In this document: positions 91 through 60,460 of the stretch, piece by piece
Numbering within the stretch: the stretch's first letter is position 1
Layout of the letters: every line of letters begins with the position of its first letter
Assembly: GCA_016181005.1 (NCBI GenBank)
Contig: JACPAE010000001.1
Coordinates: forward strand, 179,885-243,884
DNA from: Candidatus Aenigmatarchaeota archaeon
GTDB taxonomy: Archaea; Aenigmatarchaeota; Aenigmatarchaeia; CG10238-14; SCSR01
Length of the DNA stretch: 64,000 bases
Direction: 5' to 3'
The notes under the pieces: model-generated
The model's input: only the letters and a program-made list of their open reading frames with translations
Told to the model about the DNA's origin: nothing
Databases searched by the model: none
Translations under genes and position numbers: made by a program

Positions 91-194
91 TGGACTGGTG
101 GGGATTTGAACCCCAGGCCTTCTGCTTCAGCGACCTCTATGCCATCTGCGGAATCACTCTATGCAGACGATCTACCAGACTGATCTACCAGCCC
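91..194 (-). tRNA. Intron-containing tRNA with Ala-type identity elements (G3:U70, A73). About 30 extra nt lie in the anticodon arm. Anticodon unresolved: GGC if two short insertions flank the loop, CTG if one non-canonical intron at 33/34.
   Basis: Minus strand reads GGGCTGG-TA-GATC-AGTCTGGTA-GATC-G-TCTGC-[37 nt]-GCAGA-AGGCC-TGGGG-TTCAAAT-CCCCA-CCAGTCC-A. The backbone closely resembles archaeal tRNA-Ala. A direct repeat GCATAGAG occurs twice inside the insertion. Confidence 0.6.
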
Positions 195-4148: not shown

Positions 4149-5069
4149 TTAACTCAACAGTTCCAAGCTTTTCATCCCTTTCGCATACCATTCCTTCAGT
4201 TGCTCTTCAGTATAAAGCTCATATTCCTGCGAGAGGTATCTTGCATGCCCTGTTAGCCTGTCGACAATCGGGCCAGGTACACCAGCAGATATCATCTGCG
4301 TTTTGAAATATTTCCTCAGAGAATGTGCATGGAGTTCATACCTCTTCCCGATCTTCTTGCTCACCTTCCTGAAGACATTGTGCAGAATGAACTGCAGGTT
4401 CTGGTAACTCATCTGGCTTCCATCATGCGTTGCGAATAAATGTGCATCAGGGCCGAGCTGGTGTCCGTTGTTCTTCCTGTGATCCATGTAAGACTGCAGT
4501 ACTTTCTTCGCCTCTTCCGACATGAAAGTAAGCCTTGATTTCCTTTCCTTAGCTGTCAATCCCTTCACCCTGACGGTTGCAGGCGAAGAGTTTAGGTCTA
4601 CATCAGACAATTTAAGATTTCTCAACTCACCGATTCTGAGCCCGGAAGAAGCAAGCATTAAAATTATGGTCTTTGCCCTTGAGCTGGAGTGCGACAGAAC
4701 GTTCTTCAAGTCAACTTTTGACGGCAGCGTATCCTCATGTACATTATACATCTTCATAGTCACTTTTCCCTTCAAGTCTATTCCGTTTGACAGGAAAAGC
4801 TTCTTCACCGATGCACCCCAAGCACCTACGGTCTTAGGCGCCATGTTCTGGTTCGCAAGCGCAATTACAAAATCCTTGTAAGTCTCTTCCGGGTCCAGCG
4901 ATTTCTCCCGCAACTTCTCCACAAAACCGTCAAGGTCATCAATCTTCATTGTCTTGGCAAAAAGGTTAACGCCCTTTAGATATGTCTTGGCGGTGTTGTC
5001 GCTCCTCGTTAGAAGCTTTAGCTCACCAAGCATCTTGTTCACAGAGTTGAACTTCATTAGATGTTCCAT
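4149..5069 (-). CDS. xerA: Tyrosine recombinase, XerA-like integrase family
   Basis: 306 aa with catalytic R...HxxR...Y pattern (LRIGELRNL; HAHSLRKYF; LTGHARYLSQEY). Confidence 0.75.
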   Translation of the reverse strand: MEHLMKFNSVNKMLGELKLLTRSDNTAKTYLKGVNLFAKTMKIDDLDGFVEKLREKSLDPEETYKDFVIALANQNMAPKTVGAWGASVKKLFLSNGIDLKGKVTMKMYNVHEDTLPSKVDLKNVLSHSSSRAKTIILMLASSGLRIGELRNLKLSDVDLNSSPATVRVKGLTAKERKSRLTFMSEEAKKVLQSYMDHRKNNGHQLGPDAHLFATHDGSQMSYQNLQFILHNVFRKVSKKIGKRYELHAHSLRKYFKTQMISAGVPGPIVDRLTGHARYLSQEYELYTEEQLKEWYAKGMKSLELLS

Positions 5070-32761: not shown

Positions 32762-33880
32762 TTACTCTTCGCTTCTCACTATAAGGTCAAACATTCCAGT
32801 TCCTGCCGGCACAATCTGCCCCACCATGACATTCTCAAAGATTCCCTGCAAGTTGTCAATCTCGTTCCTTATCGAAGCCTTGACAAGATGCTTTATCGTC
32901 TCCTCGAAGGCAGCCCGAGCAAGAATAGAAGTCTTCGCTCCTGCAACACCATAGCGCCCTATAGAATCAACAGCGCCGCTAAATGTCATAATGTCGGCAA
33001 CAAGAGTAACATACCTGACATCCACGTCAAGCGCCTGCTCCTGCATTGTCTTCAAAGCCTCCCTTATTATGACGCTCCTTGCGGCTTCTATGCCTAGCAC
33101 AGATTCTATCTCATAAATGTCATTTGTGAACGTTTTCTTCTCATCGACTTCCTTTATTTTCAGCACATCGCTCAAATTAGTTCCTATAGTGTTTATTATC
33201 CAGTCATCCTCCTCTTTTCTAACAAGAGCGTTTTTAATCCCTTTAACTCCCGTAACAGACAGCATCAGAATCTTTTCTTTCAGCTTCTGCAGCTCCTTAA
33301 CGTCATCAGTCTTCGCTATAACTGAAATCTTATCCTCCCTAGACCTGACATTCACGTTCTTCACAGACTCTTTGATAATCCTTTGCATCACATCAACCCT
33401 TCTCTTGTCGGAGACTTCAATTTCTATCGCGTTCTCGTTCAAGTTCAGCGAGATCCGATTAATGAGATTCATAACCTTCTTTTCTATAACAAATTCCGCA
33501 AGTTTAGCGGCCTCGGTCGCATTGTTGCTTTCTCTCTTCAAATATATGGTCATCATGGGAGTCTCGGGCGTCTTTTTGGCATCGAAAATTTCTATTAGCC
33601 TAGGCAGGCCATAAGTAACTCTTATCCCGGCTGTTCCTGCAAAGTGATAAGTACGCATCGTCATCTGTGTAGCTGGTTCAGAAATGCTTTGGGCAGCAAT
33701 TATTCCTATTCCCTCGGCCGGTTCAAATCTGCCTTGAAGATAAACTTTCTTGACTTCTTCAAGCAGCTTCTGCTTCTTCTCCGCATTCAGTCTCATTTCC
33801 TTCCCGACATTCTCCACTTCTTCCAGCAATTTACTAGGCAAGTTGTCTTCATGCGAATTTGTCTGCGATTTCTCTGACAT
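32762..33880 (-). CDS. rpoA2: RNA polymerase subunit A''
   Basis: 372 aa. GIGIIAAQSISEPATQMTMRTYHFAG. Overlaps the upstream gene by 32 nt. Confidence 0.9.
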   Translation of the reverse strand: MSEKSQTNSHEDNLPSKLLEEVENVGKEMRLNAEKKQKLLEEVKKVYLQGRFEPAEGIGIIAAQSISEPATQMTMRTYHFAGTAGIRVTYGLPRLIEIFDAKKTPETPMMTIYLKRESNNATEAAKLAEFVIEKKVMNLINRISLNLNENAIEIEVSDKRRVDVMQRIIKESVKNVNVRSREDKISVIAKTDDVKELQKLKEKILMLSVTGVKGIKNALVRKEEDDWIINTIGTNLSDVLKIKEVDEKKTFTNDIYEIESVLGIEAARSVIIREALKTMQEQALDVDVRYVTLVADIMTFSGAVDSIGRYGVAGAKTSILARAAFEETIKHLVKASIRNEIDNLQGIFENVMVGQIVPAGTGMFDLIVRSEE

Positions 33881-36800
33881 TTATTCCTCCACTTTCTATT
33901 TTTGACGGATCCAAACCATCCTCGCCCGGCACAAACTGCACTATCCTGTTGGCGCTGTCCCTTACAGTACCGTCGTATTCGACTTTCAAATCCTGCAGCG
34001 CACCGACCAGCCTTCTTTCCATATAACCGCTGTGCCTTGTCTTCAGCGACTTGTCCATAAGCGACTCCCTGCTGTTGATAGCATCGAAGAAGAATTCAAA
34101 CGGCGTAACACCGTCCTTGAACCCTCTACTGACGAATCCTGTCGCCTCCAAGCTCAACGTTCCTGGCTTGAAATGCGGAAATGTCCGCTGATAATAACCC
34201 TTCTCTATCCTCTCACCCATAACCATCTCCTGCCCGACCATCGCAGCAGTTTGCACAATGTTCACAACCGATCCCCTGGCACCGCTCCTCACCATTGCAA
34301 GTGTAAAGTTGTCCTTCAAATACTTCTCAAGAACTTTTTGCACATCATTCAACCCGTTCCTCAGGATTGTTTTGACAATGTGGTCAAGGCTCTCCTTCGG
34401 CGACCTGCCGACAAGAAGCTTCAACTCGCCCCTCTCATATTTCTTGTTTGTGTCGTCAACATCTTTCCTCAGGGTTTCTATAATCTCCTTTATGTCCTTC
34501 TTCGCATTCTCCGGCAGGTCCTGGTCAGACAAGCTGATGGAAAATCCAATAAGCATAAGATAGTTTATCGCCAGCCTTGTAACATTGTAGATGAACTTTT
34601 TAGTAGCCTCGCCGCCGTACACCTTTTCCATCTTGTCTATTATTTTTCCGGCCTCGGCTCCGATGGCAACTTTGTCTATAGCCCCCTTTAAAAGCCTGCC
34701 ATTCTCTATCACGACACTTTCCCCTGTGTTCGATTTGAATTCGAGCGAGAATCCTTTCGGCAGGAACGTGCTGAACACTTCTTTTCCTGTAAGATGCTCC
34801 TTGTCCGGCAACTCTATGCTCTGGTCGACAGCCCTTACAAGCTGCGTGAACTCTTTTCTTGAAAGTTTGACATTGTCCTGTGTCAGAAGATACGATCCGG
34901 TTATGTGGTCACGTATGGCTCCTATGACAGGCCCCGAGAATCTCGGGCTTCGTATGTGCTTCGGCACCATCATCAAATTCTCCACCTCAACCTTTGCCTC
35001 TTCTGTCTGTGGCACATGAAGGTTCATCTCATCCCCGTCAAAATCGGCATTGTAAGGAGTGGTCGCGCTGAGATTCATTCTGAAAGTTTTGAAGGGCATG
35101 ACCTTGACTTTATGCCCCATCAAGCTCATCCTGTGAAGGCTGGGTTGCCTATTGAAAATAACAATGTCGCCGTTCTGCAAATGCCTCTCCACAATGTAGC
35201 CAGGGGCAATCTCGGTTGCTATCTCGCTCTTGTTCAAATCGGTTATCTTCTTTCTCCTTCCGTCGGGCCTGATTACGTAATTTGCTCCCGGCCAAATCTC
35301 TGAACCGTTCAGGACGAGCTTTTTGAGCTCTTCCAAGTCGCTTTCGTTAACTTTGACAGGCATTGTCAATTCTTTCGCGATGACTTCAGGAACTCCAACC
35401 TCGTCAATATCGATCATTGGATCTGGTGAGATGACAGTTCTCGCAGAAAAGTTAACCCTCTTGCCGGCAAGGTTTCCTCTGAATCTCCCTTCCTTGGTCT
35501 TCAACCTCTGCGACAGTGTCTTAAGCACCCTTCCCGATCTGTGCCTTGCAGGCGGGACTCCAGACAGCTCATTGTCGAAATAAGTTGATATATGGTACTG
35601 CAAAAGTTCCCACAAGTCTTCAAGTATAAAGTCTGGCGCACCCAAGTCGATGTTCTCCTTTAACCTGTCATTAATCCTTACTATGTCAACAAGTTTGTGC
35701 GTGAGGTCGTCCTCGCTCCTCTCCCCTGTCTCGAGTGTGATAGACGGTCTTACGGTAACAGGCGGTATAGGCATCAGCGTCAGCACAAGCCACTCCGGCC
35801 TCACCTTCAAGCCGATCACGTCAAGGTCCTCCTGTGAAATCTTCTCCAACATTTCCCTCACCTCGCCAAAATTCAGCGTCCTTGCTCCTTCGACAAACGT
35901 GTAAGGCTTGATGAACTTGAACTTCTTCTGCTCAGTATTGCAGTGCGGACACTTTTTTCTGGACATTGTCACAAGCTCTTTAAAGTTCATTTTCTTCCCC
36001 CTGGCCTTTTCAATGTCCTTGGGATCAACGAGCATCTTGACGCACTTGTGGCAAAACATTTTCAAAAGCGCAAAAACAATTTTCGAATAGTGTACATGTA
36101 TGATGGGTTTTGTCAGTTCCAAGTAGCCGAAATGCCCGTGGCAGTCTCCCACATTTCCCCCGCAAGTCCTGCATCTCACACCAGGATCTATAACCCCAAG
36201 CCTCGGGTCCATCAAGCCACCTTCAATCGGATAGCCTTCTTGGTCGTAAAGCTCTGTCTTGGTCAGCTTGGCCGCGGCAATGCTCTTCACCATCTCAGGC
36301 GAGACGATTCCAAATTCCAGCTTGCTCACCTTCATCAGGTTCTCGTCGACAACAATCTTCGGATAAATAAGCATGCTCTTGAGCTCGTCCAGCATAAGCT
36401 TGAACGCGTAGCTCATCTCCACATCAACTATCTTTGACTCTCCATGTATCGGGCAAATTTTTTTGTTCTTTACGCGGTCCTGAATGGAAACCAAGCCGCA
36501 GAGGGTGCAGATACATACAGTCGTCTTGTCAGAGTCGAACCTTTCTTTCAGCACAAGCGACGCACCATGAGCTATGAGGCAGTCCTTCTCCATCTCACCA
36601 AGCCTCAGACCGCCTTCCTTGCTTCTTCCTTCAGTCGGTTGCTTTGTCAGCAGCGTCACAGGTCCCCTCGATCTCGCATGTATTTTGTTTGAAACAAGAT
36701 GATCCAGCTTCTGGTAAAACGTGCTTCCGATAAATATCTGAGAGTCGAATCTCTTTCCTGTCCTGCCATCGTACATTATTTCCTTCCCGTCGTTTCTAAA

Positions 36801-38132
36801 TCCATGAGCCACCAAAGTGTTTCTAAGTTCATTCTCCGGCGTCGGGCTGAACGCAGACGCATTCACGTACTTGCCAGTAAGCGCAGCCACCTTGCCTGCG
36901 ATAATCTCCAGCAACTGCCCCATAGTCATTCTTGACGGAATGCCGTGGGGATTGAAAATTATGTCCGGCACAATACCGCTTTCTGTGAACGGCATGTCTT
37001 CAGACGGAACAACAAGGGCGATTACACCTTTCTGGCCGTGCCTTGACGCAAGCTTGTCGCCGATTTCAGGAACCTTCATGTCCCTAACAGCAACTTTAAT
37101 CAGCTTTGTGCCGTCAGTAGTGTCGGTTATGAAAACCCTGTCAACAACTCCATGGTCGCCATGCCTAAGCCTTAAAGAAGTTTCGCGTATGTTCTCCAGG
37201 CCTGTGACAAACTTGTCCATGGTACCCAAGAACCTAAGCGGCGACACCCTCCCGATTATCACCTGATCCGATTCCAAAATTGTTTCCGGATTCGATATCC
37301 CGTCTTCCGGCAGATGCTTGTATGAGTCCTCGCCAGCATAACCTCTGACGCCGGCCTCAGGTATCGCTATTATGTCCTCCTGGCCTCCAAGATACCTTTT
37401 TTGCTCCGCTTCATAAGACCTGTACATGTAGGACCACAGAACACCTTTCTGCAAAGAGCCTGCATTTATGACTATGCTGTCTTCCATGTTGTACCCATCA
37501 AAGGACGCCACTGCAATTATCAGATTGTTTCCGTTCGGATGGGTATTGTAAGGGATGACATCGTATGCATGGGTCTGCACCAAGGGCCTTTGAGGGTAAA
37601 TCATCACGTTCGACTTGGTGTCGACTCTGGAAAGGAAATTCGTGGCAAAAATTCCAATGGACTGCCCGACCATTTTAGCCCCGTAGTTGACCCTGTCCCC
37701 CCTGTTGAATTCTGGGAACGGAATGAAAGATGCAGAGAAACCCAAAATTACTGCTGGATCCATTTCAATATGAGTGTGGTCCGGCGTAAGCTCGTTCTCA
37801 TCAAGTGCAATCAAAGAGTTTTCCTCCTCCTCGCTGTCAAGATACTCAACAACGCCGGTCTTCACCAATTCACTCCAGTTAATCTCACCTTTCTTCAATT
37901 TCTCCACTAGCTCTTTCGTCAATTTCGGGACTCCCCTCTCGACAACAATCAACGGCCTTCTCACTCTTCCGGATTCCGACAGAATTCTGACTTCGTCCAA
38001 ATTCCGGTGGTAAACTACATTTACTTCATAGGGTATAACCCCGGCCCTTCTCTTTTCCCTGATATCTCTAACAAGCTTTTCCGGATCTGCCGTGTCGCCA
38101 ACAAACTTGCCGTCAAAAAATATCGTGCTCAT
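33849..38132 (-). CDS. rpoB1-rpoA1: RNA polymerase subunit B' (C-terminal half of RpoB, residues 1-599) fused in frame to subunit A' (residues 600-1427)
   Basis: The B' part has GRHGQKGV, FDGYNMEDS, GEMEKDCLIAHGA and a C-terminal zinc ribbon. The A' part has MKVSKLEFGIVSPE, zinc ribbons and NADFDGDEMN. I read the junction DNA as ...gac gag aac ctg atg aag gtg agc..., with no stop. Confidence 0.85.
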   Translation of the reverse strand: MSTIFFDGKFVGDTADPEKLVRDIREKRRAGVIPYEVNVVYHRNLDEVRILSESGRVRRPLIVVERGVPKLTKELVEKLKKGEINWSELVKTGVVEYLDSEEEENSLIALDENELTPDHTHIEMDPAVILGFSASFIPFPEFNRGDRVNYGAKMVGQSIGIFATNFLSRVDTKSNVMIYPQRPLVQTHAYDVIPYNTHPNGNNLIIAVASFDGYNMEDSIVINAGSLQKGVLWSYMYRSYEAEQKRYLGGQEDIIAIPEAGVRGYAGEDSYKHLPEDGISNPETILESDQVIIGRVSPLRFLGTMDKFVTGLENIRETSLRLRHGDHGVVDRVFITDTTDGTKLIKVAVRDMKVPEIGDKLASRHGQKGVIALVVPSEDMPFTESGIVPDIIFNPHGIPSRMTMGQLLEIIAGKVAALTGKYVNASAFSPTPENELRNTLVAHGFRNDGKEIMYDGRTGKRFDSQIFIGSTFYQKLDHLVSNKIHARSRGPVTLLTKQPTEGRSKEGGLRLGEMEKDCLIAHGASLVLKERFDSDKTTVCICTLCGLVSIQDRVKNKKICPIHGESKIVDVEMSYAFKLMLDELKSMLIYPKIVVDENLMKVSKLEFGIVSPEMVKSIAAAKLTKTELYDQEGYPIEGGLMDPRLGVIDPGVRCRTCGGNVGDCHGHFGYLELTKPIIHVHYSKIVFALLKMFCHKCVKMLVDPKDIEKARGKKMNFKELVTMSRKKCPHCNTEQKKFKFIKPYTFVEGARTLNFGEVREMLEKISQEDLDVIGLKVRPEWLVLTLMPIPPVTVRPSITLETGERSEDDLTHKLVDIVRINDRLKENIDLGAPDFILEDLWELLQYHISTYFDNELSGVPPARHRSGRVLKTLSQRLKTKEGRFRGNLAGKRVNFSARTVISPDPMIDIDEVGVPEVIAKELTMPVKVNESDLEELKKLVLNGSEIWPGANYVIRPDGRRKKITDLNKSEIATEIAPGYIVERHLQNGDIVIFNRQPSLHRMSLMGHKVKVMPFKTFRMNLSATTPYNADFDGDEMNLHVPQTEEAKVEVENLMMVPKHIRSPRFSGPVIGAIRDHITGSYLLTQDNVKLSRKEFTQLVRAVDQSIELPDKEHLTGKEVFSTFLPKGFSLEFKSNTGESVVIENGRLLKGAIDKVAIGAEAGKIIDKMEKVYGGEATKKFIYNVTRLAINYLMLIGFSISLSDQDLPENAKKDIKEIIETLRKDVDDTNKKYERGELKLLVGRSPKESLDHIVKTILRNGLNDVQKVLEKYLKDNFTLAMVRSGARGSVVNIVQTAAMVGQEMVMGERIEKGYYQRTFPHFKPGTLSLEATGFVSRGFKDGVTPFEFFFDAINSRESLMDKSLKTRHSGYMERRLVGALQDLKVEYDGTVRDSANRIVQFVPGEDGLDPSKIESGGINVREIADKFA

Positions 38133-38136
38133 ATCA

Positions 38137-39612
38137 TCACTTCTTCAGCATGTCAAAGACAGGCTTTAATTCCTTCTCCTGCAGTCCTCTTGACACTTCC
38201 GCCATCGACGCCAAATATTTTCTCAAGCCAATCGTCGCGCCTTCCGGCGTTTCCGAGGTGCACAATTTTCCAAAATGTGTGGGATGCAGTTCCCTGGCCT
38301 CAAAGTGTTCCTGGGTTGATGTAAGCGGGGATAGTACGTTCCTCATATGAGAGATGGTTTTAATGTAGCTGCCTCTCTCAAGCCTCTGGCTGACTCCGGT
38401 CCTTCCACCTACCCACGAGCCAATGGCAAGTGCCGACACCAGCTGGTTGCTGAGGACGTTGGATTCTATAATCGACTGCAACGGAGGCAGCCTCCCCCTC
38501 TTTGTCAGCTTTTGGTAGTTGTACGTCACCCTTGTTATCAATCCCCACTTGCCCAAAAGAATCGATCTTAGAAGTATCTCAAGCAAATCCCCGGATTGCC
38601 TGAGCCTCTTGTTCGAATAATGATCCAAGTCGTCCTCGTCGATCTTGTTCAAATGCAGCTTTATGATCTTCTCAATCGCCTTTGCAAGGAACAGTGCCTT
38701 GGCCATTCTGTCAGGCGGCTCCTGTCCAAGATGCGGAAGCAAGTAGCGGTCGATTATCTTCACGGCACGCTGTATTCTGTACTCCAACTGCGGTATTTTC
38801 AAGTGCTTCCCGATTTCGTCCATGGCATCGTCCTTGTTGACTGCCTGGTTCTCGTAAAGATTGATGTAGAATTCCTCCTGCACATCCTCGTCTGACGACA
38901 CAGCATTCACAATATTCCTGTCATTATCCAAGCCCAACGCCTTTATCAAGATGCCTAAAGGAAGTTTTGTAACATTCGCGAAACTTATTGTCAGCAGCCC
39001 GTCAACCCTCCTTTCAATCAGGTGCCTCTGCACGTAACCGTCCTTTTCGGAATGGATCCTTGCTATTTCTGCAATGTTGGTTGAGCCTAGTTTGGATACT
39101 ATTATCCTGTTCGATGCGATCTCCTCTACAAGAACAAGAATTCTTTCGGTCCCGTTTACGATGAAATACCCGCCGGGATCATCCGGATCTTCGCCAGCTT
39201 CAATCAACCCCTCACGCGGCATTTGCGACAATGGACATATCTTCGACTTGAGCATCACAGGCATGTCTCCGAAGTTGACAATCACAGGCTCACCCTCCTG
39301 CTTGTTTATCACAGGCGTTATCTCGACATACATCGGTGCGGCATAAGTGAGATTTCTGGTCCTCGCCTCTGACGGCATGATTGCTCTGACGCTGCCGTCC
39401 GCCTCCTTGACAGTCGGCTCTCCTATCTTGAAATCGCCCAGCTTCAGCTTTATGTCTCCAACGTCCGGGACATCTGGCTTGATAACGCCGATCTCACTCA
39501 GGACTTTTCCTATCCTTCTCATGATGAAATCGTTGTAGGACTCGATCTGGAATTTCGAAAATCCCCTTTCACGTATTTGGCTTTTTAACAGCGGGACGAA
39601 GAAATCTTTCAT
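38137..39612 (-). CDS. rpoB2: RNA polymerase subunit B'' (N-terminal half of RpoB)
   Basis: 491 aa, N-terminal RpoB domains. Lies 4 nt upstream of the B'/A' ORF in a different frame. Confidence 0.9.
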   Translation of the reverse strand: MKDFFVPLLKSQIRERGFSKFQIESYNDFIMRRIGKVLSEIGVIKPDVPDVGDIKLKLGDFKIGEPTVKEADGSVRAIMPSEARTRNLTYAAPMYVEITPVINKQEGEPVIVNFGDMPVMLKSKICPLSQMPREGLIEAGEDPDDPGGYFIVNGTERILVLVEEIASNRIIVSKLGSTNIAEIARIHSEKDGYVQRHLIERRVDGLLTISFANVTKLPLGILIKALGLDNDRNIVNAVSSDEDVQEEFYINLYENQAVNKDDAMDEIGKHLKIPQLEYRIQRAVKIIDRYLLPHLGQEPPDRMAKALFLAKAIEKIIKLHLNKIDEDDLDHYSNKRLRQSGDLLEILLRSILLGKWGLITRVTYNYQKLTKRGRLPPLQSIIESNVLSNQLVSALAIGSWVGGRTGVSQRLERGSYIKTISHMRNVLSPLTSTQEHFEARELHPTHFGKLCTSETPEGATIGLRKYLASMAEVSRGLQEKELKPVFDMLKK

Positions 39613-40140: not shown

Positions 40141-40188
40141 TTGTTGAATAATAGAATGTGGTTGTTTATAAATTTGAGATAAGAGGTA

Positions 40189-40320
40189 GAAGGACGCAGT
40201 GCAGTTCCCGTGGTCAAGCCACAGTACAAAGCACCACGCTGGAGAGTTTAACTTCCGTGTTCGGATTTCCCTACTTTTAGAGTATATGGGAACGGGTGGA
40301 ACCTCTCCGCTCTGGTCCTT
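40189..40320 (-). rRNA. rrf: 5S rRNA, standalone, with an approximately 21-nt insertion after the CCCAT segment
   Basis: Minus strand reads GGACCAGAGCGGAGAGGTTCCACCCGTTCCCAT[ATACTCTAAAAGTAGGGAAAT]CCGAACACGGAAGTTAAAC...GTACTG...GGGAACTGC...GCGTCCTTC. Universal CCGAACACGGAAGTTAA motif present, and helix I closes via GAAGGAC/GTCCTTC. Confidence 0.8.
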
Positions 40321-40390
40321 CAATAACTTTATGAGGTATTCAATGTTTTTAAACATGTAGTATAACGAATAAATGTTTTGTCATATTTCA

Positions 40391-41013: not shown

Positions 41014-41124
41014 TCCCGAAGGAGAGATTTGAACTCTCAACCTCACCGTATCCGGTAGAGTGCTGATCACTAGCACAATAGTACTAGGCTACAGCGGCGC
41101 GCTCCACCATTGAGCTACTTCGGG
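41014..41124 (-). tRNA. tRNA-Tyr (GTA) with 39-nt intron at canonical 37/38 position
   Basis: CCCGAAG-TA-GCTC-AATGGTG-GAGC-G-CGCCG-CTGTAG[39 nt]A-CGGTG-AGGTT-GAGAG-TTCAAAT-CTCTC-CTTCGGG-A. C1:G72 and A73 are archaeal Tyr identity elements. Intron CTAC pairs with GTAG, consistent with a BHB. Confidence 0.8.
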
Positions 41125-50839: not shown

Positions 50840-50912
50840 AGCCCCGTCGTCTAGTGGTCAAGGATACGAGACTCTGGATCTCGGGACATCGGTTCGAATC
50901 CGATCGGGGCTA
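50840..50912 (+). tRNA. tRNA-Gln (CTG)
   Basis: AGCCCCG-TC-GTCT-AGTGGTCAA-GGAT-A-CGAGA-CTCTGGA-TCTCG-GGAC-ATCGG-TTCGAAT-CCGAT-CGGGGCT-A. A1:U72 is typical of archaeal tRNA-Gln. Confidence 0.85.
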
Positions 50913-52037: not shown

Positions 52038-53459
52038 ATGGAGAAAGTCCTGCAGATTGTCCTGAAGAAAATCAGGCCCAAGGCATCTGACGAAAAAAGT
52101 CTGACAGAACTGGCTAAAAGAGCTGTGGAGCTGGCGAATGAAGTATCCAAAAAATACCACGCCAAGGCTATTCTGGCCGGCAGTCTAACTCGGGGCACAT
52201 GGCTTCCAGGGAAAAGAGAATTCGATGTATTCGTTTTATTCCCTCCTGACCTGCCAGAAGACAAGCTGGAGGATTACGGTCTGGCCGTAGGCAAGGAAGT
52301 GGTAAAGAGGTTGAAGGGAAAGTTTTTCGTAGAATACGCGCAACATCCTTATACGTCGGGCATCGTCCAAGGAATAAGCATAGACATAGTGCCCTGCTAT
52401 GAGGTCGAGTCTGCGGAAAAGATAAAATCGGCAGTCGACAGGACGCCTTTCCATGTGAGATACATAGAGAAGAACCTGCCGTTGAAGCTGGCCGACGACG
52501 TGAGATTGTTGAAGCAGTTACTTTCGGCTAACAGGATATATGGGGCAGATGCAAAGACTCAGGGATTCTCCGGCTATGTCTCCGAATTGCTCGTAATTAA
52601 ATACGGCGGATTCTCCAATGTTATAAAGGCGACTTCAGCATGGCAGCCCGGCACGATCATTGACTTGGAAAACAGCTACAAGAAAGAGGATTACCAACAG
52701 CTCATCAGAAGTTTCAAGGGTAACCCGCTGATTTTAATTGACCCGACCGACAAGAACAGGAATACAGCCTCCGCTTTGTCTGTGGAGAATTTTCTGAAAT
52801 TCAAAAAGTTGGCCAAGAGTTTTATAGCAAAGCCTAATGCCAATTACTTCTTCGAAAGCAAGACCAAGCCATTAACTGGCAGGGAGCTTGAAAGGATACT
52901 GGCAGGAAGGAAGACGGAATTAATTGTCGTAAAGTTCAAGCCGCCGAAAGTGGTCCCGGACATTCTTTGGCCTCAATTAAGAAGGTTCACTGAAAGACTT
53001 TCGAATATTCTGGAAGAAACCAAATACGAGTTTAAAGTTTTAAGAAGCGATTGTTATACCGACGAAAAGGATGTGGCAATTGCTTTGTTGGAAATGGAGA
53101 TTTCGAAATTACCTCCTATTCAAAAAAGAATTGGGCCGAGCGTCTTTGATATTAAAGATGCATCAAGATTTTTGGAAAAATACAATCAACCTTTAGCAGG
53201 ACCTTTTGTTGAGGATGATAAATGGGTTGTTGAGATAAGAAGGAGGTTCGTTACTGCCCATGAGAAAGTCTCGGATAGTCTAAAGAACAAAGAAGATATT
53301 TTGAAAGCGAAGGGCGTACCGAATTACATCGCCGCTCAGCTGGCCAAACGGTTTGAAATCGTATCCGATGGGGAAAAGCTTGTAAAATTGGCAAGCAAAA
53401 ACAAGGAATTCGGAATTTTTCTTCGGAATTATTTCAAAAAGGACAAGCCTGCTTTATAA
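52038..53459 (+). CDS. cca: CCA-adding tRNA nucleotidyltransferase, archaeal class I
   Basis: 473 aa. GSLTRGTWLPGKREFDVFVLFP is the nucleotidyltransferase motif. Confidence 0.88.
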   Translation: MEKVLQIVLKKIRPKASDEKSLTELAKRAVELANEVSKKYHAKAILAGSLTRGTWLPGKREFDVFVLFPPDLPEDKLEDYGLAVGKEVVKRLKGKFFVEYAQHPYTSGIVQGISIDIVPCYEVESAEKIKSAVDRTPFHVRYIEKNLPLKLADDVRLLKQLLSANRIYGADAKTQGFSGYVSELLVIKYGGFSNVIKATSAWQPGTIIDLENSYKKEDYQQLIRSFKGNPLILIDPTDKNRNTASALSVENFLKFKKLAKSFIAKPNANYFFESKTKPLTGRELERILAGRKTELIVVKFKPPKVVPDILWPQLRRFTERLSNILEETKYEFKVLRSDCYTDEKDVAIALLEMEISKLPPIQKRIGPSVFDIKDASRFLEKYNQPLAGPFVEDDKWVVEIRRRFVTAHEKVSDSLKNKEDILKAKGVPNYIAAQLAKRFEIVSDGEKLVKLASKNKEFGIFLRNYFKKDKPAL

Positions 53460-53671
53460 CCATTTCGTCTGTTTCCATTTCTTCCCCTCAATACAGTGTC
53501 CATAAGTCTTCTGCCTTCCATTGAGTCGATATCGTAATTCGTGCCACACTGCAGACAATCCAAGTAAAATCCATATTCATATCTCTCGGATTCAAGATAC
53601 ATGTCGCCGCGGCATTTCCCGCAGGCTTTAAATAACCACGTATTTCTTAGTTCGGACAGCCTGTAAGGCAT
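53429..53671 (-). CDS. Small zinc-ribbon protein
   Basis: 80 aa with CGKC...CLQCG. Confidence 0.35.
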   Translation of the reverse strand: MPYRLSELRNTWLFKACGKCRGDMYLESERYEYGFYLDCLQCGTNYDIDSMEGRRLMDTVLRGRNGNRRNGYKAGLSFLK

Positions 53672-53706
53672 ATTGAATATTAAACCGTTAAGAATAAATT
53701 CATATT

Positions 53707-54630
53707 ATGCTGGAGATAACTTTCCTCGGCACTGTGTCGGGAATACCTACAAGAGACAGGAACCATTCAGCCATAATTTTCGAGCACTATACTGATACCA
53801 AATCGACATTGCTGTTCGACTGCGGCGAAGGGACACAGAAGCAGCTGATGCTGGCAGGGATAAACTTCATGGACATTGACAACATATTCATTTCCCACTG
53901 GCATGCCGACCACTTTGCAGGGCTGATTCCTTTAATCCAGACGATGAACATGGAAAAGAGGAGGAAAGAATTGAAGATATACGGGCCGGAGGCGGAGAGA
54001 TTCGTAGCAGACATAATTGACTTGGGATACTTTGGTTTGAGGTTCCCGATAGAGGCAGTTAACGTGCCGTTCGAAGGCGATGAGATAACGACTATATTAG
54101 ATGAGGAGAACTTTGAAGTTTGTTCAGTGCCAATGCTGCATACAGTTCCCAGCGCCGCTTATTGCTTCAAGGAAAAGGACACATGGAACATTGACTTGGG
54201 AAAGTTGAAAGAACACGGTCTGAAGCGCGGTGTTTGGCTGAAGAAATTGAAAAAACATAACGAGGCAGAGTACAAGGGGAAGAAAATAAAGATAGAGGAC
54301 GTCTCAAACAAGAAGGAAGGCTTGAAGGTTGTTTATACAGGCGACACAAAGCCGAATGAAAATACAGTAAAAATTTCTGAGAATGCGGACATGCTTATCC
54401 ATGACGGCACTTTTCTCGAGCTTGACGAGTCAAAGGGCAAATACCATGCAGATGTTGGCGAGGCTGCGAAGATTGCGGAAGAGGCTAACGTGAAAAAGCT
54501 TATACTAACCCACATCAGCAGGAGATATAACAAGGAGGACATCAAGGAGATGGAGGAGAAGGCAAAAAAAATATTTCCTCATACGACAATTGCACATGAT
54601 ATGATGAAGCTTACTTTGAAGAAAAACTGA
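53707..54630 (+). CDS. rnz: Ribonuclease Z (tRNase Z, short form)
   Basis: 307 aa. Metallo-beta-lactamase HWHADH motif. Confidence 0.85.
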   Translation: MLEITFLGTVSGIPTRDRNHSAIIFEHYTDTKSTLLFDCGEGTQKQLMLAGINFMDIDNIFISHWHADHFAGLIPLIQTMNMEKRRKELKIYGPEAERFVADIIDLGYFGLRFPIEAVNVPFEGDEITTILDEENFEVCSVPMLHTVPSAAYCFKEKDTWNIDLGKLKEHGLKRGVWLKKLKKHNEAEYKGKKIKIEDVSNKKEGLKVVYTGDTKPNENTVKISENADMLIHDGTFLELDESKGKYHADVGEAAKIAEEANVKKLILTHISRRYNKEDIKEMEEKAKKIFPHTTIAHDMMKLTLKKN

Positions 54631-55514: not shown

Positions 55515-56183
55515 TCAGCATTCATTACCATTCCGTATGCCAAACCTGCTAAAATCAGGAATGTTGCCCCTAGTAAAATATTTGAAAGCAGTTTCCCCAG
55601 GTCTTGTAAACAGTATTTTACCATCGTACCCGTCAACAAAGAGCAGTTCTGTATAAGGAGGTTCGTTCCCCCTAAGTTCAACCCTTTGTATGACTAGATC
55701 CAGATAATTATCGTCGTTTGCACGCACAACATAAGATGGCAGATGATAGTAAGGCTCACCATATACACCGCCTCCAAATTCCGCCAGACTTTTTATTTTC
55801 ATTGTGCCATTTGCCGATGTAACACTGAAGACAGTTTTGCCTTCATAACCGCCTGTTACAAATGTTGCCCTGCCCGGCTGGTAATTCACACACCGGGCCC
55901 ACTTATAGAGGGCATTCTCAGGTTCTTGAAGGAACCTTTTAATGTCATTTAATTCGCGTTCGTCTGCCGGGCTTATTGTGGGGCTTATTGTGATTTGTTG
56001 GGTTGCAGAAGTAGTTGGAGACGCCTGCGCAGTTATTTGAGGTTGCGAGTGTCTAGTTGGTGCGTCACGCAATCTTCCAGACAAACTTGACGCGACCGCA
56101 AAAAACATCCCCAGAGAAAGCACTCCAATAATTGCTAACATTTCCAGTATGTTATCCTTGTTGACGTACTTTCCAATAGGCAT
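55515..56183 (-). CDS. Secreted or membrane-anchored hypothetical protein
   Basis: 222 aa. N-terminal TM/signal segment. Confidence 0.35.
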   Translation of the reverse strand: MPIGKYVNKDNILEMLAIIGVLSLGMFFAVASSLSGRLRDAPTRHSQPQITAQASPTTSATQQITISPTISPADERELNDIKRFLQEPENALYKWARCVNYQPGRATFVTGGYEGKTVFSVTSANGTMKIKSLAEFGGGVYGEPYYHLPSYVVRANDDNYLDLVIQRVELRGNEPPYTELLFVDGYDGKILFTRPGETAFKYFTRGNIPDFSRFGIRNGNEC

Positions 56184-56239
56184 GGCCGATCCCTAAACCT
56201 AAAGTGGAAACCAACTTTTATAAATGGTTGGAATATGGC

Positions 56240-56923
56240 TTAATTAACATGTCTGAGCAGTTTAATGCAGTAATTCTTATCTTTTAAAATTTTACAAACA
56301 GATAATGGTACATAATAGAAGATACCTTTACTTAATTTTCCCCATCTTACACGAACTGAATAGTGTTTAGTTAATTTACATTCGTCCACTAAATATGACA
56401 TCAAATCTTCATAGTGATATTGCCAAATAACTCCAGTCTTACCTTTTCTGATAGACCCGTCTCCATCTATCAAACCAGATAAAAATGCAAAGATTTCTTT
56501 TGGTCTGTAAGTTCCGTCCTTCGGAGGAAATTCGTCATGCAAAATTTTAGAATAAACACGTATTACAGTACTTCCTCTATAGAGAGAAATAGTAGGTTTT
56601 AATCCTATTTTTTGTAACAATTCTATAACTCTTTGCGATATATCTTTGTCCCTAGAATGGTCCAAACCAAATTTTATTGTATACTGGTGTTTTTCTTTGA
56701 ATTTACATCCGTCGGCATAATAAAGACCTAATAACCATTCTAGTTCCCACTCCGATAATCTATCAAGATATATTTGTTTAATTCTAGTTCTACTCCTTTT
56801 GTAATAGCTGATTAAAGACTTTCCTACCCTAACTCCAAATTTCTTATAAATAGCACTAGCTAATTCTGAATAGCTTAATTCCTCACTTTTTATAAATTCT
56901 ACAACTTCTTTTGGGTGCATCAT
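56240..56923 (-). CDS. Free-standing double-motif LAGLIDADG homing-endonuclease-like protein
   Basis: 227 aa with two LAGLIDADG motifs: LLGLYYADGC and LSGLIDGDGS. Confidence 0.75.
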   Translation of the reverse strand: MMHPKEVVEFIKSEELSYSELASAIYKKFGVRVGKSLISYYKRSRTRIKQIYLDRLSEWELEWLLGLYYADGCKFKEKHQYTIKFGLDHSRDKDISQRVIELLQKIGLKPTISLYRGSTVIRVYSKILHDEFPPKDGTYRPKEIFAFLSGLIDGDGSIRKGKTGVIWQYHYEDLMSYLVDECKLTKHYSVRVRWGKLSKGIFYYVPLSVCKILKDKNYCIKLLRHVN

Positions 56924-56996: not shown

Positions 56997-57096
56997 TGGA
57001 CCGGGAGAGATTTGAACTCTCGTCCCCCTGCTTTCTTAGATATACGGAGCAAAGTCGTATAAGACAGGTGCTCCAACCAGACTAAGCTACCGGTCC
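56997..57096 (-). tRNA. tRNA-Ile (TAT) with 25-nt intron at canonical position
   Basis: GGACCGG-TA-GCTT-AGTCTGGTTG-GAGC-A-CCTGT-CTTATA[25 nt]A-GCAGG-GGGAC-GAGAG-TTCAAAT-CTCTC-CCGGTCC-A. TATACG of exon/intron pairs with intron CGTATA. Confidence 0.7.
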
Positions 57097-58041
57097 ATGT
57101 ATTTATATCATTGTGCAATCGATTTATTAATTATGTTCGATAAGACCATCTTGATAAACAAGGTAATAAATGCCCTGCAGGACAACGGCTACGAGACTTT
57201 TGTCACTCACGGCTCTTTCGACATTGTCGCAAGGCAGGACAGGCTGATTCTGATAAAGACTCTGATGAACATAGACAGCCTTGAAGAGTCGCATGCAATG
57301 GACTTGAAAGCTGTTTCCTATTTTCTGTCAGCCCACCCTTTCATAGTTTCAATCAAAAACAACCGGGAGCATCTGAATGATGAGACAGTCTATTCAAGGT
57401 TCGACGTGCCTGTCGTCACGCCCAAATTAATGAGGGTAATGCTAGAAGACGACGAATTGGTAGTCTCGCACTCTTCAAAGGGAAGGCACACGCAGGAAAT
57501 CAACACTTTTACCTTGAAGGAGAAAAGGAAGGAATTGGGCTATACCTTGCAAGTTCTTGCAAAGCAGATCGGGATTTCCAAGAAGGCGATGTACGAGATT
57601 GAAAAGAAGAGGGTGAATCCGCAGAGAGAGAATGCACATGCATTAGAGCGGCTGTTGGGAACAGAGCTGGCATTGCCATATGAGATGAAATTTGAAGAGC
57701 CTACCTATATCAGGCCAAAAACAGTTTTCCAGAAGATTGTCAGCAGGGAGTTCGCAAGGCTGGGAATAGACAATTCAACTGTCAGGTCAGCGCCCTTCGA
57801 AATTATCGGAAGGGAAAGTTTCTCTATTATCACCAATTTGTCAACAACACCTTCAGAGATTAAAAAGGAGATTGAAGAAGTGAGGGGTCTGGCAAATGTG
57901 TTCTCGTCAAAGACAGTTCTTATTTCCAAGAGATATGTGAGGACTTGTGTCGAGGGCATACCTGTCGTCTCGGAGCAGGAACTGTCAGAGTTGCAGTCGT
58001 CGAAAGAGCTGTCCGAAATTATAGATGAAAGGACTTACTAA
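57097..58041 (+). CDS. COG1395-like archaeal transcriptional regulator with XRE-type HTH
   Basis: 314 aa. HTH LGYTLQVLAKQIGISKKAMYEIEKKR. True start is probably the internal MFDKTILINK. Confidence 0.55.
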   Translation: MYLYHCAIDLLIMFDKTILINKVINALQDNGYETFVTHGSFDIVARQDRLILIKTLMNIDSLEESHAMDLKAVSYFLSAHPFIVSIKNNREHLNDETVYSRFDVPVVTPKLMRVMLEDDELVVSHSSKGRHTQEINTFTLKEKRKELGYTLQVLAKQIGISKKAMYEIEKKRVNPQRENAHALERLLGTELALPYEMKFEEPTYIRPKTVFQKIVSREFARLGIDNSTVRSAPFEIIGRESFSIITNLSTTPSEIKKEIEEVRGLANVFSSKTVLISKRYVRTCVEGIPVVSEQELSELQSSKELSEIIDERTY

Positions 58042-58819: not shown

Positions 58820-60460
58820 ATGGCAAACGCAATGATAGGTCAATTGGGAGGTCAGCCTATATTAATTCTTCCAGAAGGAGCTATGAGATCCACAGGCAAG
58901 GACGCGCAGAGAAATAACATTGCTGCTGCAAGGGCAGTTGCAGACGCTGTAAGAACAACTCTCGGCCCAAAGGGCATGGACAAGATGCTTGTCGATTCCA
59001 TAGGAGACATTGTCATAACGAACGACGGGGTCACAATTTTGGAGGAAATGGACATCGAGCATCCTGCCGCAAAGATGATGGTAGAGATTGCCAAGACGCA
59101 GAACGAGGAGGTAGGCGACGGAACTACTACCGCGGTAATTATTGCCGGCGAGCTGTTAAAGAAGGCAGAGGATTTGCTTGAACAGGAAATCCACCCTACA
59201 GTTATCACAAGAGGCTTCAGGCTGGCAAAGGACGAGACGTTGAAAATTTTGGAGCAGATTGGCAAGCCCGTCTCTATTGACGACACTGAAAGCCTTAAGA
59301 AAATCGCAATGACTTCGATGTACGGCAAGTCCGCTGAAAAGGCTTCGGCGCATCTGGCCACTGTAGTTGTCGATGCGATAAAGATGGTTGCCGAAAAGAA
59401 CAACGGAAAGATCCAGGTCGATTCGGACAACGTAAAAAGGGAAAAGAAGCATGGCGGAAGCTCGGAAGACACTGCCCTGGTAAGGGGCATTGTTGTCGAC
59501 AAGGAAGTAGTTCATCCGGCAATGCCTAAGACAGTAAAGGAGGCAAAGATAGCACTTTTGGATGTGGCACTGGAAGTAAAGGAGACAGAGACCGATGCGG
59601 AAATCAGGATAACATCACCAGATCAAATGCAGGCCTTCATAGAGCAGGAGCAGAAGATGCTCAAGGACATGGTTGAGAAAGTTGTCAAGTCTGGAGCAAA
59701 TGTTCTCTTATGCCAGAAGGGGATTGACGATGTCGCCCAGCATTATTTGGCAAAGAAAGGGATACTGTCCTGCAGAAGGGTGAAAAAGTCGGATATGGAG
59801 GCATTGGCCAAGGCGACTGGCGGAAGAATAATTTCAAACTTGGACGACCTGTCGACTGAAGACTTGGGTTATGCAAAGGTTGTGGAGGAAAGAAAGGTCG
59901 CAGGAGAGTCGATGACTTTTGTTGAAGAGTGCAAGGATCCAAAGGCGGTAACAATTTTGGTCAGGGGCTCTACAGAGCATGTTGTCGATGAGATTAATAG
60001 GAGCATAGAGGATGCAGTCGGTGCTGTGGCTTCGGCGCTGGAGGAGGGCAAGATCGTGGCAGGAGCGGGCTCTCCAGAAGCAGAGGTCTCCAACAGGCTG
60101 AGAAAGTTTGCAGAAAAATTCTCCGGAAGGGAGCAGCTGGCGATAAAGGCGTTCGCGGATGCAGTAGAAGTTGTTCCAAGAAGCCTGGCCGAGAACGGCG
60201 GATTGGACCCGATTGACACTTTGGTTGAATTAAGAGCAGCGCATGAGAAGGGGAATGTAACTTACGGCGTTGACTTGACCAATGGCAAAATCAGCGACGC
60301 ATTTACAGCTGGAGTCATCGAGCCGCTGAAGGTCAAGACGCAGGCAATAATGTCGGCCGGAGAGGCTGCAGAAATGATTTTGAGAATCGACGACGTAATA
60401 ACTGCTGGAAGGCTTGAGAAGGGGCCTTCAATGCCCTCTGGAATGGACCACGAAGAGTAG
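58820..60460 (+). CDS. ths: Thermosome subunit (group II chaperonin)
   Basis: 546 aa. [18 protein letters not shown] and GDGTTT motifs. Confidence 0.95.

Follow-up and report, generated by a model that had tools for sequence, protein, structure and literature searches.

Introduction

The canonical archaeal way of reading AUA as isoleucine without also reading AUG is tRNA-Ile2(CAU), in which C34 is encoded and the wobble base is the agmatidine made by TiaS. A tRNA-Ile with a genomically encoded UAU anticodon has been described for a small number of archaea. Among 167 archaeal genomes, tRNA-UAU was found only in K. cryptofilum and N. equitans (PMC6000648), and tRNAscan-SE 2.0 lists it as 'Ile3', which makes Ile2 unnecessary (PMC8450103). 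Both organisms, which belong to phyla other than Aenigmatarchaeota, are without tRNA-Ile2(CAU); the Korarchaeum tRNA-Ile(UAU), reported to be derived from the tRNA-Ile(GAU) of the same genome, is also encoded by an intron-bearing gene, like the one described here (PMC6000648, PMC8450103, PMC3895270). ARMAN-2, -4, and -5 likewise possess tRNA-Ile(UAU) and are without TiaS and tRNA-Ile(CAU), as reported by Fujishima et al. 2011; in the ARMAN-2 precursor, a 25-nt intron at position 37/38 forms part of a strict hBHBh' motif, and the ARMAN-2 endonuclease cleaves this precursor in vitro (PMC3239211). The restriction of UAU tRNA-Ile to a few lineages, as given in the initial annotation of the locus studied here, is therefore right as to its rarity (2/167 genomes, PMC6000648), while the ARMAN genomes have to be added to the list (PMC3239211).

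The eukaryotic cytoplasmic tRNA-Ile(UAU) is AUA-specific and also has an obligatory anticodon-adjacent intron, which pairs with the anticodon, but its splice sites are recognized by a ruler mechanism, whereas archaea use a bulge-helix-bulge (BHB) motif (PMC4090602). In yeast, Pus1 depends on this intron for converting residues 34 and 36 to pseudouridine, and the pseudouridines sharpen the discrimination of AUA versus AUG (PMC4090602). Mycoplasma mobile, a prokaryote without a C34-modifying enzyme, also uses UAU for AUA; this tRNA-Ile2(UAU) is bacterial and has no intron, its U34 is unmodified, and IleRS (Arg865) and ribosome are co-adapted (PMC3575796). In haloarchaea, an engineered U34 tRNA-Ile binds AUA, AUG, and AUU (PMC3895270). 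In the literature searched, nothing relevant to TiaS, agmatidine, or UAU in Aenigmatarchaeota or other DPANN turned up beyond the ARMAN study, and no paper ascribed the trait to Aenigmatarchaeota.

Here, we analyzed a 64-kb stretch of genomic DNA, referred to as the window, from an archaeon of the Aenigmatarchaeota, which are placed in the kingdom Nanobdellati, i.e. in DPANN. From its sequence, the segment 56997..57096 is very probably a functional gene for an AUA-reading tRNA-Ile(UAU), the 'Ile3' of tRNAscan-SE. Judged by the published description, the gene resembles that of ARMAN-2 (Micrarchaeota, DPANN) in its UAU anticodon and in the 25-nt intron at 37/38 with its hBHBh' motif. The two belong to different phyla, and the lack of TiaS was read from genomes for ARMAN, while it is deduced indirectly here.

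Results

Anatomy of the tRNA gene

The Rfam model RF00005 (gathering score 29) matches the minus strand from 57096 to 56997 with 55.4 bits and E = 3.2e-9, exactly at the coordinates of the initial annotation, which gave no strand. The match is full-length (model positions 1-71), and the 26 unaligned bases are all located inside the anticodon loop. With its cloverleaf, its D- and T-loop sequence, and a score above the gathering threshold, the segment belongs to the tRNA family. In minus-strand order the gene reads GGACCGG-TA-GCTT-AGTCTGGTTG-GAGC-A-CCTGT-CTTATA, followed by the intron and the 3' exon, for which hand reading of the sequence gives A-GCAGG-GGGAC-GAGAG-TTCAAAT-CTCTC-CCGGTCC-A. The acceptor stem comprises 7 bp (GGACCGG/CCGGTCC) with the discriminator A73, the D stem 4 bp (GCTT...GAGC), and the anticodon stem 5 bp (CCTGT/GCAGG). 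The variable loop of 5 nt (GGGAC) is of class I, and the T arm is canonical (GAGAG-TTCAAAT-CTCTC). The sequence after A73 is TTA, so the gene does not encode CCA.

In E. coli, the Ile identity elements outside the anticodon are A73, A37, A38, C4:G69, U12:A23, and C29:G41. Compared to this set, which may not be the archaeal one, the gene carries A73, A37, A38, C4:G69, and U12:A23, while 29:41 is U:A. After BHB splicing, the mature loop C-U-UAU-A-A has 7 nt with U33 and A37, as expected for tRNA-Ile(UAU) or 'Ile3'. Upstream, inside the 36-bp gap to a divergent HTH gene, the element TTAATAAAT possibly represents an archaeal TATA box. The tRNA is found in a 100% identical copy, together with the downstream ORF, on a 1.1-kb Logan contig (L001, run SRR12113432). 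The coordinates of the features are given in Table 1.

Table 1. Features of the tRNA-Ile(UAU) gene and its immediate surroundings, with positions in the window.
Feature	Position	Strand	Content and basis
pre-tRNA-Ile(UAU), whole gene	56997..57096	-	precursor of 100 nt; 75 nt when mature, CCA not counted
5' exon	57058..57096	-	acceptor 5' strand, D arm, CCTGT, loop C32 U33 U34 A35 U36 A37; sequence and BHB geometry
Anticodon TAT (UAU), positions 34-36	57059..57061	-	sequence; the same in all 18 distinct mature sequences of orthologues
Intron CGACTTTGCTCCGTATATCTAAGAA, canonical 37/38 position	57033..57057	-	25 nt; single BHB solution
Central BHB helix, 5' strand C32 U33 U34 A35	57060..57063	-	4 bp; pairs with intron TAAG
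Central BHB helix, 3' strand TAAG	57035..57038	-	intron nucleotides 20-23; followed by AA/A bulge with 3' splice site
Intron CGTATA, partner of TATACG (57056-57061)	57041..57046	-	alternative helix competing with BHB
3' exon	56997..57032	-	A38, GCAGG, GGGAC, T arm, acceptor 3' strand, A73; sequence and covariation
A/T-rich TTAATAAAT, putative TATA box (possible)	57122..57130	-	about 26-34 nt upstream of mature 5' end; read by eye
HTH_3 (XRE-type) gene, divergent neighbour	57133..58041	+	Pfam PF01381; kept in all related loci
LAGLIDADG-domain ORF	56240-56923	-	directly 3' of tRNA
Hypothetical ORF	55515-56183	-	3' of tRNA, with the LAGLIDADG ORF

The intron and its splice sites

At archaeal splice sites a 4-bp helix separates two 3-nt bulges; when the site is the canonical one, this central helix includes the first two bases of the anticodon, paired with intron nucleotides (PMC4090602). 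A scan for this geometry gave one solution for the precursor, with the central helix CTTA:TAAG, the bulges TAC and AAA, and an inner helix h' of 2 bp (GA:UC). The 5' bulge is formed by U36-A37/C and the 3' bulge by A-A/A38, with the slash marking the splice site, and the 5-bp anticodon stem serves as the outer helix. This geometry fixes 37/38 as the position of the splice sites, and the mature loop becomes CUUAUAA. The precursor thus shows the hBHBh' arrangement of archaeal BHB-spliced pre-tRNAs, with positions 32-35 paired with the intron, in a weak fold of -2.5 kcal/mol. Together with the Rfam match, the splicing solution supports the tRNA-Ile with a genomic TAT anticodon of the initial annotation, and the intron length of 25 nt given there is that obtained from the scan.

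The initial annotation also held that any plausible exon boundary would leave the loop C-T-TAT-A-A. The BHB solution does so, whereas ARAGORN in its intron mode (-i) cuts after U34 (position 38 in its own numbering) and reports Ser(UGA). If the intron were cut there or elsewhere, the anticodon would be UGA or another one, and the gene would not encode a tRNA-Ile; the program favors such a reading also for orthologues, which it names variously His, Ser, Ala, or Tyr. We rejected the Ser(UGA) call because there is no BHB motif at that cut, 37/38 being the only BHB solution, and because the short class-I variable loop of 5 nt is incompatible with a tRNA-Ser. In addition, CUUAUAA is restored in 21 loci, although their introns, of 13-45 nt, are very different. 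A mis-assigned anticodon is hence exceedingly improbable, and the assignment as tRNA-Ile(UAU) is retained. In its default mode ARAGORN misses the gene, because it then looks for no introns.

The pairing of TATACG with the intron segment CGTATA, pointed out in the initial annotation, does occur in the minimum-free-energy fold of the anticodon arm (-7.2 kcal/mol, compared to -2.5 kcal/mol for the strict BHB), but it lies outside the BHB motif and competes with it. The orthologue in locus L004 retains this alternative intron pairing as TATATGG:CCGTATA. For the whole precursor the minimum-free-energy fold is not a cloverleaf, because the intron segment TTGCTCC pairs with GGAGCAA of the D arm. These folds of the arm and the precursor are competitors in folding and do not offer alternative splice sites. 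As the strict BHB is weak and the minimum-free-energy folds favor other pairings, splicing is deduced here from the motif geometry and from the orthologues, whereas the ARMAN-2 precursor was cleaved in vitro.

Conservation in Aenigmatarchaeota

The thermosome gene (58820-60460), located 1.7 kb from the tRNA, has its best match, at 91% identity, in an 'uncultured archaeon', and the thermosomes of named Aenigmatarchaeota MAGs are 78-81% identical to it. RNA polymerase homologues, among the best 120 matches listed, also bear Aenigmatarchaeota names at NCBI. The same tRNA was found at the same place in 20 related loci, divergent from the HTH gene and upstream of the thermosome gene; in about 20 Aenigmatarchaeota loci, tblastn places the start of the HTH gene 36-60 nt from the 5' end of the tRNA. 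In the following, 21 loci refers to these 20 and the window, with the exact copy on contig L001 left out.

In each copy CTTATA precedes an intron, 13-45 nt long, at 37/38 or, in L005, L007, and L022, at 38/39. The intron at one of these positions is kept in 21/21 loci, with widely varying length and sequence; of the same loci, only a part also carries an intron in the neighbouring gene for tRNA-Val(UAC). In orthologues with an uninterrupted anticodon stem the central helix is CTTA:TAAG, CTTA:TGAG, or CTTA:TAGG. Splicing guided by the BHB motif restores CUUAUAA in 21/21 loci, and in the resulting 18 distinct mature sequences the CUUAUAA loop, A73, and U12:A23 are invariant. Six orthologues, with several introns or with the intron at 38/39, were mis-spliced by template-guided automatic removal and had to be re-spliced manually, using the cloverleaf as a guide. 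Over the 18 mature sequences, 99.7% of the cells of the cloverleaf are paired and 13/21 pairs show changes on both sides, values that are somewhat favored because the mature orthologues were hand-spliced and partly cloverleaf-guided; 0/500 shuffles and no slid register approach them.

Many orthologues carry one or two additional, non-canonical introns (L003, L004, L005, L007, L008, L010-L013, L015, L020, L022, L056, L069, and L080). The additional introns of the D loop, at about position 20/21, have the central helix CTGG:CCAG; others follow position 9 or interrupt the D arm, the anticodon stem (27-30), or the variable region. The orthologues of L008 and L015 have three introns in one tRNA.

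The conserved loop, the compensatory changes, and the synteny indicate a functional, vertically inherited tRNA and not a pseudogene. Directly 3' of the tRNA, the LAGLIDADG-domain ORF and the hypothetical ORF might instead point to a pseudogene or to a tRNA recently acquired with a mobile element, which would not be a core component of translation, and these ORFs are missing at this place in L002 and L004. However, tRNA, HTH gene, and thermosome gene are syntenic in 20 other loci without the LAGLIDADG ORF, the perfect cloverleaf carries compensatory substitutions, and the insertion adjoins the tRNA but does not surround it. We regard this explanation as highly improbable and consider the tRNA to be part of the vertically inherited gene set. 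Judging from the sequences compared, the UAU solution with an anticodon-adjacent intron is common to Aenigmatarchaeota; what is new is the further phylum, with ATA as its major Ile codon as counted in the window, and the retention of the intron in every member examined.

With intron detection switched on, ARAGORN assigned a wrong identity (Ser, His, Ala, or Tyr) to 12 of the 21 genes, left 6 uncalled, and named 3 as Ile(tat). As the program misnames or misses most of them, MAG annotations may under-report tRNA-Ile(UAU).

AUA codon usage and the TiaS system

The 16,054 codons of 49 non-overlapping window ORFs include 514 ATA, 451 ATT, 237 ATC, and 442 ATG. The usage of ATA, which the initial annotation proposed to check, is accordingly high: ATA accounts for 514/1202 Ile codons (43%) and for 32 of every 1000 codons, more than any other Ile codon of the window, and it is frequent in the genes for EF-1alpha, EF-2, RNA polymerase, and the thermosome. 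A tRNA-Ile(UAU) is therefore heavily needed.

The window, a small part of the genome, was also surveyed for components of the alternative system. Pfam searches of about 40 of its ORFs detected no TiaS/DUF1743 domain and no IleRS. Four tRNA genes were detected in the window: three are for Ile(UAU), Tyr(GUA), and Gln(CUG), the fourth has no clean anticodon assignment, and a CAU anticodon is found in none of them. At related loci CAU genes do occur; their 5' end reads AGCGGGG and their anticodon stem has GGG:CCC, a combination that we take to be the signature of archaeal initiator tRNAs.

The genome may nevertheless encode a redundant system, with TiaS and tRNA-Ile2(CAU) retained besides tRNA-Ile(UAU), in which case AUA decoding would not be independent of TiaS. 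We found nothing positive in favor of such redundancy, with the gene survey covering 64 kb of the genome. Against it, no archaeal case described combines UAU with CAU/TiaS (PMC3239211; PMC8450103), strong purifying selection acts on the UAU gene throughout the phylum, and ATA is the major Ile codon of the window. We therefore consider redundancy improbable. By analogy with the described cases, this lineage of Aenigmatarchaeota is probably without the tRNA-Ile2(CAU)/TiaS system. As in Nanoarchaeum, Korarchaeum, and ARMAN, tRNA-Ile(UAU) would replace tRNA-Ile2(CAU) and its agmatidine modification by TiaS. As the gene encodes T34, TiaS chemistry cannot apply to its product.

Following established archaeal tRNA biology, the transcript would be trimmed by RNase P and RNase Z, and the splicing endonuclease would cut the intron at both bulges, after which the halves would be ligated. 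CCA would have to be added enzymatically because the gene encodes none, and A37 would probably be modified to t6A. The mature tRNA-Ile(UAU) would be charged by IleRS and would read AUA by a U34:A pair. Misreading of AUG could be avoided by a modification of U34; alternatively, tRNA, ribosome, and IleRS could be adapted to one another, as described for Mycoplasma mobile.

Genomic neighbourhood

In the closest relatives (L002 and L004), the interval between an ArsP-like gene and the tRNA is free of the LAGLIDADG and hypothetical ORFs. The region 55515-56923 looks like a strain-specific insertion beside the tRNA, whose only other copy is on Logan contig L001. On the plus strand, genes for a CCA-adding enzyme and for an RNase Z-like metallo-beta-lactamase are adjacent to each other (52038-54630), 2.4-5 kb from the tRNA, and this gene order is also kept in L002, L004, and L015. 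The location of this pair near a CCA-less, intron-containing tRNA may be a coincidence, or it may represent a small tRNA-maturation neighbourhood.

Further observations concern the RNA polymerase genes. On the minus strand, 33849-38132 is occupied by one ORF of 1427 aa, in which B' (Rpb2 domains 4-7) continues in frame into A' (Rpb1 domains 1-5), while B'' (38137-39612) and A'' (32762-33880) are encoded by separate genes. At the B'/A' junction, near 36330-36345, the sequence AAC CTG ATG AAG resembles a TGATG stop/start overlap with one extra base. With a junction probe of 241 aa, 0 of the best 120 homologues listed covered both halves. As no listed homologue spans the junction, the two subunits are either fused specifically in this lineage or joined by an assembly error of 1 nt.

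The default filters of Rfam missed the fourth tRNA of the window (91-194, minus strand, 52 bits). The strands of its anticodon stem are separated by 37 nt, without a clean BHB motif, and the only splice that gives a 7-nt loop with U33 leads to the anticodon CUG. Its body (G1:C72, A73) is unlike that of tRNA-Gln(CUG) at 50840-50912. It adjoins a class-I synthetase of the GluRS/GlnRS type (992-2653), and a gene for a phage-type integrase (4149-5069) lies at a distance of about 4 kb. Between about 8000 and 20000, the G+C content is 0.36-0.40, compared to 0.41-0.48 elsewhere in the window, and several ORFs have no Pfam match; this low-G+C region, with the integrase at 4149-5069, may be an integrated element. 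The 5S rRNA (40186-40323, minus strand, 64.6 bits) has about 20 extra nt (AUACUCUAAAAGUAGGGAAAU) in a hairpin loop that contains 3 nt in the family consensus. Located 700 bp upstream of the 5S rRNA is a tRNA-Tyr(GUA) (41014-41124), whose intron comprises about 40 nt.

Discussion

The retention of the intron in 21/21 loci, as well as in ARMAN-2, in Korarchaeum, and in all eukaryotic tRNA-Ile(UAU) genes, raises the question of whether it is kept because it is needed for modification of the anticodon and is not a neutral passenger. We know of no intron dependence of the Pus1 type in archaea, and we regard this explanation as rather doubtful. If it were true, an intron-dependent modification of U34/U36 in DPANN would constitute a deep archaeal-eukaryotic parallel in AUA decoding without a modified cytidine.

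The trait itself is of a known kind, rare in archaea overall and established for DPANN and Korarchaeum, and our current understanding of the mechanism is unchanged. The initial annotation, which suggested an unusual strategy of AUA decoding in this organism, pointed in the right direction but overstated its case: the strategy is typical of the wider DPANN group, with the ARMAN genomes as precedent (PMC3239211). AUA/AUG is the one spot in the genetic code where a plain wobble U is dangerous, and since a plain U34 endangers the discrimination between these codons, lineages that naturally use UAU are natural experiments in the avoidance of misreading. In a further DPANN phylum, a UAU anticodon with an anticodon-adjacent intron is fixed, and ATA is the dominant Ile codon there. 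This adds to a picture in which TiaS-independent decoding would be a DPANN-wide feature and not a matter of a few isolated oddities.
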